DNA of 64,000 bases from Giardia intestinalis (Eukaryota). The translations under genes and the position numbers were made by a program. Below the pieces are notes generated by a model. The model saw only the letters and a list, made by a program, of their open reading frames with translations, was not told the DNA's origin and searched no databases. Below are positions 38,037 through 40,137 of the stretch, piece by piece. The stretch lies in assembly GCA_000002435.2 (NCBI GenBank), contig CM018793.1, one strand, 5' to 3'. Within the stretch, counting starts at the first letter, position 1. Each line of letters starts with the position of its first letter.

Positions 38037-40137
38037 GCGTTTACTACCTAAGTCATGCCTTCCCTCTGCATATGAACCACCAGCAGAGGAAGCCCACAAG
38101 GCCAGCCACGACAACCACCACAGCGACGGAGATACCTGCTATGGCGCCTGTGCTGAGGCCGCTTCTGTTGCCCCCGCTGGGCTTGGTGGACACGCACGCC
38201 TCACCCTCCAGCCTGTAGTCGTCCCCGCACCGGCCGCACTTGTTCTCCTCGCTGCACCTGACGCACCCGTCGATACTGCAGGCGATGCACTGGGAGCCGT
38301 CTGTGTTCGGCCTCTGGTCTTTACTGGTACAGGCCTCGCACTTGCCGCCTGCTCCACAGTGCGAGCATCCGTCAACGGTACAGGTGAAGCACCCGCTCCC
38401 AGCCAGGTTGGGCTTGTTGTTGCCGCTACACGCTGTGCATGTGGCAGGGGTCATGCCAGGAGCCTCTAGCGCTGCTGGGGCCGTGCATGCTGTGCAGCCA
38501 TATACTCCCACATATGCCTTAGCGGTGCTGCCAGCCCCTATCACTGTGCCAAGGGGGTTCTCGCAGGCCAGGACAGACTGATCAGTATTGGATGCCCCCG
38601 GGACCAGGAAGTACCGGCCGTTCTCGCTGGGGGCGGTGCACCTCCCTCCCTCGGCGGTCTTGCACATGTGGCTGCCAGGAGCCTTCGACACATCATAGCA
38701 GCCGCCCATGTACAGGAAGAACCCGGCAGCACACCGGGTGCAGACGCCGTTCTCGCAGGTGTTGTCACCCTTAGTTCCTGTGCAGACCCCATCGATGGGG
38801 AACGTGGCGGGGTCTCCGCACAGCGAGCAGTACTGGGAGAACGCCCCGGCGCTGTCAACGACGACCGCCCCGCAGGCCCCAGACGTCCCCCCGCAGGCCG
38901 TGGGGTCCTCGCAGACCTTTGTGCACTTCACCGGATTGGTTCCCTCCTTGCGATAGTTGGACTTGCAATCGGTGCATGTAGGGGTTAGGCCGCTGTTACA
39001 TTGGGAGCACCCCTCTATGCCATTGTCGGCTTTACTGTCGCAGGCGAAGCACTTACCAGCAGAGCCGGGTTGTTTCAGGAAGTACCCTGGCTTGCATGTA
39101 TCACACTTATCATTTCCAGCTTGAGTGCAGGTGGCGCAATTCTCGCCACAAGGGTCGCAGGTAACTGAGTTCCCGCTTCCCTTTTTTATATACCCAGCTA
39201 AACAGGCAGAGCATTGATCCTTGCCTGGACAGCTGCTACACCCGGCAACGCCGCCTCGCGCATCATCGCCACATAGGACACAAGCCTTTGGAGGTGTTTG
39301 ATCAATAAAATGAGTGCTAGTGCACTCTCCCTCCGCAACGCATGTCGTCGTCCCGTCTGCCGCTGTCTTCACTATCTTGCTACTGCTGCAGGTCTTACAT
39401 TGTGGTTGACTAATAGTTGCATTGTACTCACAGGTGGCACAGTCAGCTATGTCAGTAGCGCAGGCCTTGCACTTGTCTACTTTTGGATCTGCATAGCTAT
39501 CACTACCACATCCACTAGCCTCTACACACTCAGTCCCCTTCAGGAACTTCCCCTTGGGGCAGGCGGTGCACTGAGTCGGAGTAGCAGACTCACACGTCAA
39601 ACAGCCGGGTCCGCATTGCACACATGCATCGCCCTTCTTGGCGTACCCTCCTTGGCATGCAGTGCACGTGGCAGCCCCTGTACCGCCACCTGGCGCCGTG
39701 CATGTGTAGCAGCCCGCCACCCCCGTGACTCCGTCTCGCGGAGCGACGTCCGAGCAAAGCACGCACTCGTTGCCAGGGGCTACTGGGCTGGCCGGGTTCT
39801 GGAATAGATACGCGGCGCCTGCCTTGCAGGTGGTGCACACCCCCTTGTCGGCCGCCGTGCAGATCTCAGACCACTGGCTCGTCTTGTAGCACCCGCCCAT
39901 GAAGAGGAAGTACCCGTCCCCGCACTTCCCGCAGATAGTATCCGACCCCGCCAACGCGGTCCCGTCTGCCCTGGTGCACCCGGCCGCCGCGGCCTGGGGG
40001 GTGCCGGGGGGCCAGCAGAAGCCGCCGACCGGGACGCCCCCGGCCCTGCACTCGGTGCAGATCTCGGAGTACCCGACCGTCTCGCACTTGTCGGTCTGGC
40101 AGCTCGCGGCGTGGTCTCCGTCTGGCTGGCAAGGCGC
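38037..40137. repeat. Inverted repeat arm A (2,101 bp), at least 99.9% identical to arm B at 46998..49098
   Basis: Every alternate-frame ORF in this arm has a mirror-image ORF of identical sequence in arm B. Direct nucleotide comparison of the ends gives the boundaries: at one end gcgccttgccagcc, at the other the AGTAAACgc poly(A) signal. Two synonymous differences were seen near the 3' end (ACC/ACT and AGA/AGG). Confidence 0.9.

Follow-up and report, generated by a model that had tools for sequence, protein, structure and literature searches.

A start-less VSP pseudogene nearly identical to its inverted neighbour in Giardia intestinalis WB, probably through recent gene conversion between two older loci

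Identical VSP genes arranged as inverted pairs, of the vsp1267 type, are a well-known feature of Giardia (Adam et al. 2010, PMC2996952), and 20 such pairs are given for the GL2.1 assembly (bioRxiv 10.1101/2022.03.07.483299). According to Adam et al. 2010 (PMC2996952), the flanks of the paired genes are near-identical and diverge abruptly 139-729 bp outside the coding region, and their spacers are 2.2-3.8 kb long and non-coding; the preprint adds that all paired VSPs have a common 5' upstream sequence. The present analysis concerned one inverted VSP pair in a 64,000-nt stretch of chromosome 5 of Giardia intestinalis WB clone C6 (contig CM018793.1), referred to below as the window. The pair is already annotated in the reference as GL50803_00111732 and GL50803_00d111732, here called copy 1 and copy 2, and in the supplement to the Rodriguez-Walker et al. 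preprint they appear as a VSP and a pseudogene, respectively. It is thus an annotated VSP/pseudo-VSP pair within the well-known inverted VSP duplicates, but with an atypical spacer, atypical flanks, and an atypical coding status. Comparison of its sequence with that of other isolates indicates that the near-identity of the two copies was probably produced by recent gene conversion between two old, neighbouring VSP loci in inverted orientation.

A repeat search found one large repeat only in the window, the inverted pair itself (Table 1), with arms of 2111 nt each and a gap of 6840 nt between them. The two VSP genes are oriented head to head, with an HCMP gene between them. Base-by-base comparison of the arms gave five mismatches in 2111 nt, the 100% identity reported by the repeat tool being a rounded figure. 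In copy 2 coordinates the mismatches lie at 46990, 46996, and 46997, at the 5' edge, and at 48950 and 48971, which leaves an exact core of 1952 nt (46998-48949, corresponding to 40137-38186) and, at the 3' end, an exact tail of 127 nt. Both 3' mismatches are synonymous, so that the mature proteins of copy 1 and copy 2 are identical. Outside the arms, in-register identity of the flanks was at background (2-8/20), and word-7 blastn of all four flank combinations returned nothing significant at corresponding flank positions. The inverted repeat noted in a preliminary description of this DNA is therefore real, with small corrections, and the statement there that promoter, 5' end, and 3' flank are not shared was also borne out.

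The boundaries of identity are sharp. At the 3' end both copies read TGACTTAGGTAGTAAACGC (TGA CTTAGGT AGTAAA CGC), with complete divergence beyond, and in both the arm ends at the last base of a 17-nt signal, ACTTAGGTAGTAAACGC, which overlaps the stop codon. This end is 2 nt past AGTAAAC, 3 nt past the AGTAAA hexamer, and 16 nt past the stop; the preliminary description had put it 4 nt past AGTAAAC and had that motif abutting the TGA, where there are in fact 7 nt (CTTAGGT) between stop and hexamer. The preprint describes an extended poly(A) signal, ACUUAGRUAGURAAYRY, that is present in all 136 WB VSPs, and 323 of its 327 matches genome-wide belong to VSPs or their pseudogenes. The first 15 nt of the motif, ACTYAGRTAGTRAAY, occur only twice in the window, once in each arm, against 0.04 occurrences expected. 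All of the VSP 3' ends compared (two from WB, three from DH, one from locus L006, and two from P15) finish with A(C/T)TTAGGTAGTAAAC(G/A)C and diverge directly after it, and their last 150 nt are 78-93% alike, also between assemblages A and E. Judging from these alignments, a block conserved throughout the family comes to its end at the 3' boundary. At the 5' end, exact identity starts at a GCG codon (40137 in copy 1, 46998 in copy 2) directly after the signal peptide of copy 1, MLLIALHLVTSILA, while the 10 nt farther 5' match at 7/10 positions; the arms do begin, as had been proposed, within one codon of the predicted cleavage site.

For other pairs, genome-wide boundary statistics were taken from the literature and from supplement rows. 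The preliminary description had named, as the observation that would count against a general rule, duplicated pairs with boundaries unrelated to the limits of the coding sequence (CDS), and the published pairs are of this kind, running 139-729 bp beyond the CDS. The relatives of copy 2 likewise have 3' flank in common with it, 86 nt in DH L003 and 705 nt in DH L004 and ENA L005. Since both the published pairs and the relatives of this one share longer flanks, the boundary at the CDS limits is specific to the history of this pair, and VSP duplication in general does not follow such a rule. The same history extends, perhaps, to a second pair, GL50803_0041401/d41401.

Copy 1 has the features expected of a VSP gene. 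Its protein matched the Pfam family PF03302 (VSP; E 2.1e-43) and is 100% identical to KAE8305807.1/XP_001707628.2 (G. intestinalis WB; 4.02-Mb chromosome), and its translation ends ...AGLVGFLCWWFICRGKA*, a conserved transmembrane (TM) segment followed by the CRGKA cytoplasmic tail, as expected of a VSP. An Inr/Kozak-like TAATGTT lies at 40181-40175, with the ATG at 40179-40177 followed by 14 signal-peptide codons, so that copy 1 combines a PyAATGTT start context with a predicted signal peptide, in agreement with its row in the supplement of Rodriguez-Walker et al. ('taatgtt', predicted signal peptide MLLIALHLVTSILA). The CDS is a single uninterrupted open reading frame (ORF) without introns. 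A superseded 615-aa model, XP_001707628.1 (starting MGGCY), fits the first in-frame ATG of copy 2 at 47235 and not the start of copy 1, and an earlier assembly had probably represented the start-less copy, or merged it, in that model.

In copy 2 the ORF is intact to the TGA at 49080-49082, but the ATG at 47235 is the first in frame, a lack of a start that the preliminary description had not pointed out. Its 5' end has no PyAATGTT, no start ATG, and no canonical signal peptide, and in these respects it falls short of a functional VSP; the supplement enters it as a 2124-nt pVSP that begins ctgctgtgtgtagg and lacks both start and signal peptide. Upstream of the arm the frame reads ...RRHPLLCVGTTLAVTLV-APCQ. 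The 42 nt that lead up to the first mature codon (46956-46997, of which 10 nt are inside arm 2), PLLCVGTTLAVTLV, are possibly a decayed signal peptide. Compared in register with the signal-peptide codons of copy 1 they match at 19/42 positions, and the DH version at 21/42, where the null gives 10.4 +/- 2.8; once the 10 nt included by the repeat finder are set aside, the figure is 12/32 (p ~0.06), which is marginal. The similarity hints that the leader upstream of copy 2 (t2) ends in the degenerate remains of an old signal peptide and not in a clean breakpoint.

The age of the four junctions between arms and flanks was examined by comparison with DH (assemblage A2; loci L001, L003, and L004), an ENA metagenome scaffold (L005), and P15 (assemblage E; L009). 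A 393-aa gene on the A flank, that beyond the 3' end of copy 1, served as the anchor with which the orthologous locus was recovered from DH L001, P15 L009, and short-read assemblies; the distant outgroup loci L010 and L011 end before any VSP. In DH L001, P15, and three short-read assemblage-A assemblies alike, the A flank leads directly into the 3' end of a VSP oriented as copy 1 is, and a junction common to all of these is older than the split of assemblages A and E. The Y1 flank, beyond the 3' end of copy 2, adjoins a VSP 3' end in DH L004 and ENA L005 (92-94%), and its first 86 nt are also found in DH L003. In P15, the homologue of Y1 (49107-49422, collinear with L009 12552-12871; 66%, E 1e-13) sits between the P15 VSP and NEK gene remnants, in the same locus. 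Directly before it P15 reads TAGATAGTAAA, in register with the WB poly(A) signal and holding the sole AGTRAA hexamer on that strand within the ~800 nt scanned, and the frame before this, IIAVIVLAGFLYKGKT* (L009 12440-12551), resembles a decayed VSP TM/CRGKA end. Kept as evidence of position and register, this relic suggests that a second, plus-strand VSP beside Y1 is old, and the comparison further suggests that the head-to-head arrangement predates the assemblage A/E split. The fourth junction, from t2 to the VSP body, is at the same point in WB copy 2, DH L001, L003, and L005. By their distribution among these isolates, the four junctions all predate the near-identity of the two WB bodies.

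Around the same 5' boundary, position 1 of DH L004 (AHGT01000153.1) is exactly the LAAPCQ boundary of a related VSP. A contig that starts here suggests that more than one upstream sequence confronted the assembler, and that another DH copy may begin with a canonical signal peptide. The t2 leader is 94-98% conserved in DH L001, DH L003, and ENA L005 (46479-46997 in the window, 9555-10072 in L001, ~5816-6326 in L003, and 1-707 in L005). Reading RRHPLLC(V/A)GTTLAV(T/A)L(V/A)-APCQ at its end and placed head to head with an HCMP gene, it precedes at least four VSP bodies in WB, DH, and the ENA metagenome. Three of the four t2-led bodies sequenced end to end (WB copy 2, L001, and L005) are intact ORFs of ~700 codons without an ATG, and that of L003 is frameshifted near its 5' end. 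A second same-clade pair, GL50803_0041401/GL50803_00d41401, is annotated on WB chromosome 5 outside the window. The signal peptide of GL50803_0041401 is MLLIALHLATSILA, and the supplement has GL50803_00d41401 annotated from ctcgcggcg..., the same 'LAA' position as in GL50803_00d111732. Among the members of both pairs, all except GL50803_00111732 have a GCGC context after the poly(A) signal.

The WB bodies are far more alike than the age of their junctions would allow had they evolved separately. WB and DH diverge by 1.4% in the A flank, 2.0% in the C flank (the NEK side, beyond 52240), 3% in t2, and 4% in VSP-adjacent intergenic sequence, and copies independent since before the WB-DH split would be expected to have accumulated ~30-80 differences over 2.1 kb. 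The WB bodies show none in the 1952 nt of the core and five in the 2111 nt of the arm, against this 1.4-4% divergence of the flanks, and with five differences where 30-80 are expected they are much younger than the junctions. Body identity is thus far above that of the flanks, while each flank goes with a different related locus, A with DH and P15, and Y1 with L004, L005, and P15.

The body is also a mosaic, as read from sliding-window identities and not from a formal GENECONV test. Compared with the gene on the A flank of DH L001, the WB body is 92-99% identical over 46982-48725 but only 67-75% over 48726-49098, and the latter segment is 91-96% identical to DH L003; the last 450 nt of the WB body are 91-98% identical to L003 and L004. 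Similarity therefore switches from L001-like to L003/L004-like at ~48725. At the A-side copy, WB and DH have an orthologous flank (96-98.6%) that abuts a non-orthologous last 450 nt (74-88%), the last difference between them being 3 nt before the stop, so that a tract end lies inside the conserved terminus. Evidence from GENECONV for recombination among the 3' regions of WB vsp genes has been published.

From these observations we infer conversion as the process, together with its direction and timing. Two neighbouring, opposed VSP loci, each with its own old flanks, would have been homogenised by homologous recombination, mainly as conversion between the inverted copies, probably with occasional crossovers and with input from other paralogues. 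The conserved last 150 nt and the shared signal would supply the homology in which exchanges resolve, and the tract would be limited on the 3' side by the end of the extended poly(A) signal, past which A and Y1 have no relation to each other. Its 5' limit would be the first mature codon, where copy 1 continues into its Inr, ATG, and signal peptide, and copy 2 into the start-less t2 leader that it shares with the adjacent HCMP gene. Copy 2 would then be a silent pseudogene kept identical to its expressed partner by conversion. Two origins had been put forward in the preliminary description, and of these the conversion tract limited by conserved VSP ends is supported by the older junctions, the mosaic body, and the identity contrast, whereas the retroposed, promoter-less copy is not, there being neither an A tract nor a target-site duplication.

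Several points weigh against gene conversion between old loci as set out above. The P15 relic is weak as a free alignment, its score being reached by 79/2000 shuffles, and it gives no Pfam match. DH L003 and L004 may be orthologous to GL50803_0041401/d41401 rather than to copy 2, and Y1 matches L004 at only 92%, whereas clear orthologues reach 98%. A single full-length replacement would look like repeated conversion, and the identity of a 2-kb repeat could have been inflated in part by mis-mapping of reads during assembly polishing. P15, finally, is too divergent to polarise the ancestral 3' end, or the direction of exchange, at the A-side copy.

A simpler history would be a one-off, recent inverted duplication at the DNA level, in which the mature CDS of copy 1 and its poly(A) signal were copied to a place beside the HCMP gene, with breakpoints that coincide with the CDS limits by chance. 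The near-perfect identity of the arms is what such an event would leave, recent duplication or transposition was the origin preferred by Adam et al. for identical pairs, and the reference annotation itself tags copy 2 as a duplicate ('d111732'). The junctions of copy 2, however, from t2 to the body and from the poly(A) signal to Y1, are already present in DH and the ENA metagenome scaffold, and Y1 also in P15, and junctions found outside WB were not created by a WB-specific event. One-way copying from copy 1 also predicts a body like that of the A-side orthologue throughout, yet the 3' segment of the WB body is unlike this orthologue and like the Y1-side relatives, and the known recent pairs carry 139-729 bp of shared flank. 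A single duplication is accordingly an unlikely origin of the pair.

The arrangement of the homologous locus in DH bears on a second alternative. With the A flank as reference, DH L001 carries t2 and the HCMP gene reversed with respect to WB (window 40148-52239 against L001 4234-12161). DH L001 is also without 40148-41451 (the X flank, upstream of copy 1, and the last HCMP bases), one VSP copy, and 49099-52239, about 6.6 kb in all. It thus lacks Y1 and the ankyrin part of NEK, the first ~295 codons of which remain up to a break in homology at 52240; P15 retains remnants of both ends of NEK, so the truncation is derived in DH. Nothing in the window or among the fetched loci matched a 297-nt filler at the DH junction. 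The simplest reading of DH L001 is one inversion through the arms and one 6.6-kb deletion, although the arrangement is also consistent with a contig error.

An inversion of this kind could represent a programmed invertible cassette, in which the 6.84-kb spacer is turned around by recombination between the arms, so that the sole Inr/ATG/signal-peptide module passes from one body to the other. A single expression module does lie between two opposed bodies, DH L001 does join the A-side body to t2 and HCMP in the orientation opposite to WB, and t2 is 97% identical between WB and DH L001. If true, the opposite orientation of the WB and DH spacers would be the trace of a flip, the start-less, t2-led bodies beside HCMP genes (in WB and at least three DH-type loci) would be a reserve that is activated or recombined by DNA rearrangement, and there would be a recombinational path to VSP change where switching is held to be purely epigenetic. 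Both WB bodies encode the same mature protein, however, instead of different products, and a flip would be antigenically silent; the difference in orientation comes from one 454-era contig, which also has the 6.6-kb deletion; and the literature describes VSP switching as epigenetic. A programmed cassette is for these reasons quite improbable.

Still less probable is that assembly or polishing has exaggerated the identity, and that the arms are real paralogues that differ more than they do in the assembled sequence. Adam et al. noted that identical vsp pairs disturbed assembly, and in other isolates the short-read contigs are interrupted within the 3' end of this VSP. Yet five differences persist between the arms, two of them internal and synonymous, each arm has flanks of its own, the long-read reference, in which duplicated pairs were reconfirmed, includes the pair in its annotation, and DH has close relatives with the same leader.

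Last, copy 2 might be a processed retrocopy of the copy 1 mRNA, truncated 5' at the signal peptide, as its want of promoter, start codon, and introns and the position of the arm end near the poly(A) signal could imply; the loss of introns is uninformative, because the parent gene has none. A check for poly(A) remnants and target-site duplications at the arm ends, proposed in the preliminary description, found none above chance: there is no A-rich tract after either arm (the longest run is 2 A), and the best candidate duplications are 5-6-mers, with shared k-mers of at least 6 nt occurring in 62% of shuffles. According to the preprint, cleavage in Giardia occurs 13-16 nt past the hexamer start, which puts the expected copy 1 site ~21-24 nt past the stop (VSP1267 has its hexamer 8 nt after the stop and a 3' untranslated region of 24 nt). 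The arm end, 16 nt past the stop, is 5-8 nt short of this site, and a retrocopy would carry those 5-8 further nucleotides of the parental 3' untranslated region, and a tail. As the 5' end of the arm is not the 5' end of an mRNA, the sequences past the arms (ACTGGTTT... and GCCGATGA...) are unrelated, the flanks of copy 2 recur beside related VSPs in other genomes, and the conserved leader upstream may retain a weak similarity to a signal peptide in register (19-21/42 against a null of 10.4), retroposition is hardly credible.

Table 1. Features of the inverted VSP pair and its surroundings, in window coordinates.
Feature	Position	Strand	Basis or remark
393-aa hypothetical gene on A flank of copy 1	36313-37494	+	synteny anchor
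Extended VSP poly(A) signal ACTTAGGTAGTAAACGC, copy 1	38037-38053	-	first A is last base of TGA
Arm 1, body of VSP GL50803_00111732	38037-40147	-	repeat, Pfam, and protein match
Copy 1 CDS including stop	38053-40179	-	708 aa, ends CRGKA
Copy 1 expression module, absent from copy 2	40138-40181	-	Inr/ATG/signal peptide
X flank, unique region upstream of copy 1, up to HCMP 3' end	40182-41414	-	alignment
Spacer HCMP/CRMP-type gene, 1687-aa cysteine-rich membrane protein	41415-46478	-	ORF and domain matches
t2 leader, HCMP start to arm 2	46479-46987	+	no ATG, no Inr
Arm 2, pseudogene GL50803_00d111732 (pVSP)	46988-49098	+	repeat and supplement rows
Extended VSP poly(A) signal, 17 nt, copy 2	49082-49098	+	last base is last base of arm
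Y1 flank of copy 2	49099-49803	+	92% to 3' flank of DH L004/ENA L005
NEK kinase with ankyrin repeats, 993-codon ORF beside Y1	50136-53117	-	domain matches

The features around the arms are collected in Table 1. No further VSP or HCMP relics were found in the window by tblastn, and the X flank had no match elsewhere in the window or in any fetched locus. The spacer HCMP has 11.2% Cys, a signal peptide, EGF-like matches, and a C-terminal TM segment with a tail of ~50 aa. Over 42206-44184 it is 93-100% identical to DH L003 and ~60% to DH L001, and over 41452-42205 it is like L001 (71-90%) and unlike L003. On these identities the gene is a sharp mosaic of DH paralogues, which points to an exchange of segments among HCMP genes as well. 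The WB NEK was considered as a possible chimera with the NEK beside DH L003, and this was rejected, the two being only 30% identical. On the far side of the 393-aa gene, a PMSR-like ORF (34686-35309, minus strand) and a 399-codon ORF (35103-36302, plus strand) overlap by ~200 nt in the ORF list; the counterpart of the latter is called shorter, at 321-345 aa, in DH, P15, and short-read assemblies, and its true start, on this comparison, is probably an internal ATG.

Gene conversion between two older loci accounts for the neat boundary of the pair without a new mechanism, as the point at which the family-wide ends of VSPs meet unrelated flanks. It would also mean that conversion maintains a start-less pseudogene identical to its expressed partner. 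In addition, WB and DH appear to be distinguished by an inversion through the arms. All of this is relevant to the extent of recombination in the antigen repertoire of Giardia and leaves the current picture unchanged.

The palindromes of the human Y chromosome are a familiar case of inverted repeats that evolve in concert by gene conversion between their arms. The VSP pair resembles them in having an arm identity far above that of its surroundings, a unique spacer, and sharp ends where homology ends, but the Giardia arms belong to a large antigen family, in which third-party paralogues donate segments too. In Campylobacter fetus, a segment of ~6 kb that carries the sole expression signals is inverted between opposed sapA cassettes, with the conserved coding ends as recombination substrates; this bacterial system is RecA-dependent, and switching has been shown experimentally. 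The VSP spacer likewise has the sole expression module between opposed bodies of conserved coding sequence. In Giardia, however, the bodies are identical, and an inversion is inferred from one strain comparison.

Nearer to hand, copy 2 retains the CRGKA tail, the TM segment, and the extended poly(A) signal, like most of the pVSPs described in the Rodriguez-Walker et al. preprint. It differs from them in being undecayed, with 0 differences from its expressed partner over 1952 nt, and in having a start-less leader that is conserved at several loci of another isolate. The pair is also like the identical inverted vsp pairs, which consist of two near-identical VSPs inverted on one chromosome with one member 'd'-tagged. 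Those pairs, however, are two complete and identical ORFs, while copy 2 is without start codon or signal peptide; their spacers of 2.2-3.8 kb are non-coding, while that of 6840 nt described here holds a gene for a 1687-aa HCMP; and their flanks are identical over 139-729 bp, including the 5' upstream sequence, where the present arms share no flank and identity is confined to the stretch from the first mature codon to the end of the poly(A) signal. Taken together, the evidence indicates that the pair arose by recent homogenisation of two older, separately flanked loci, and not by the young duplication that has been proposed for the classical pairs.

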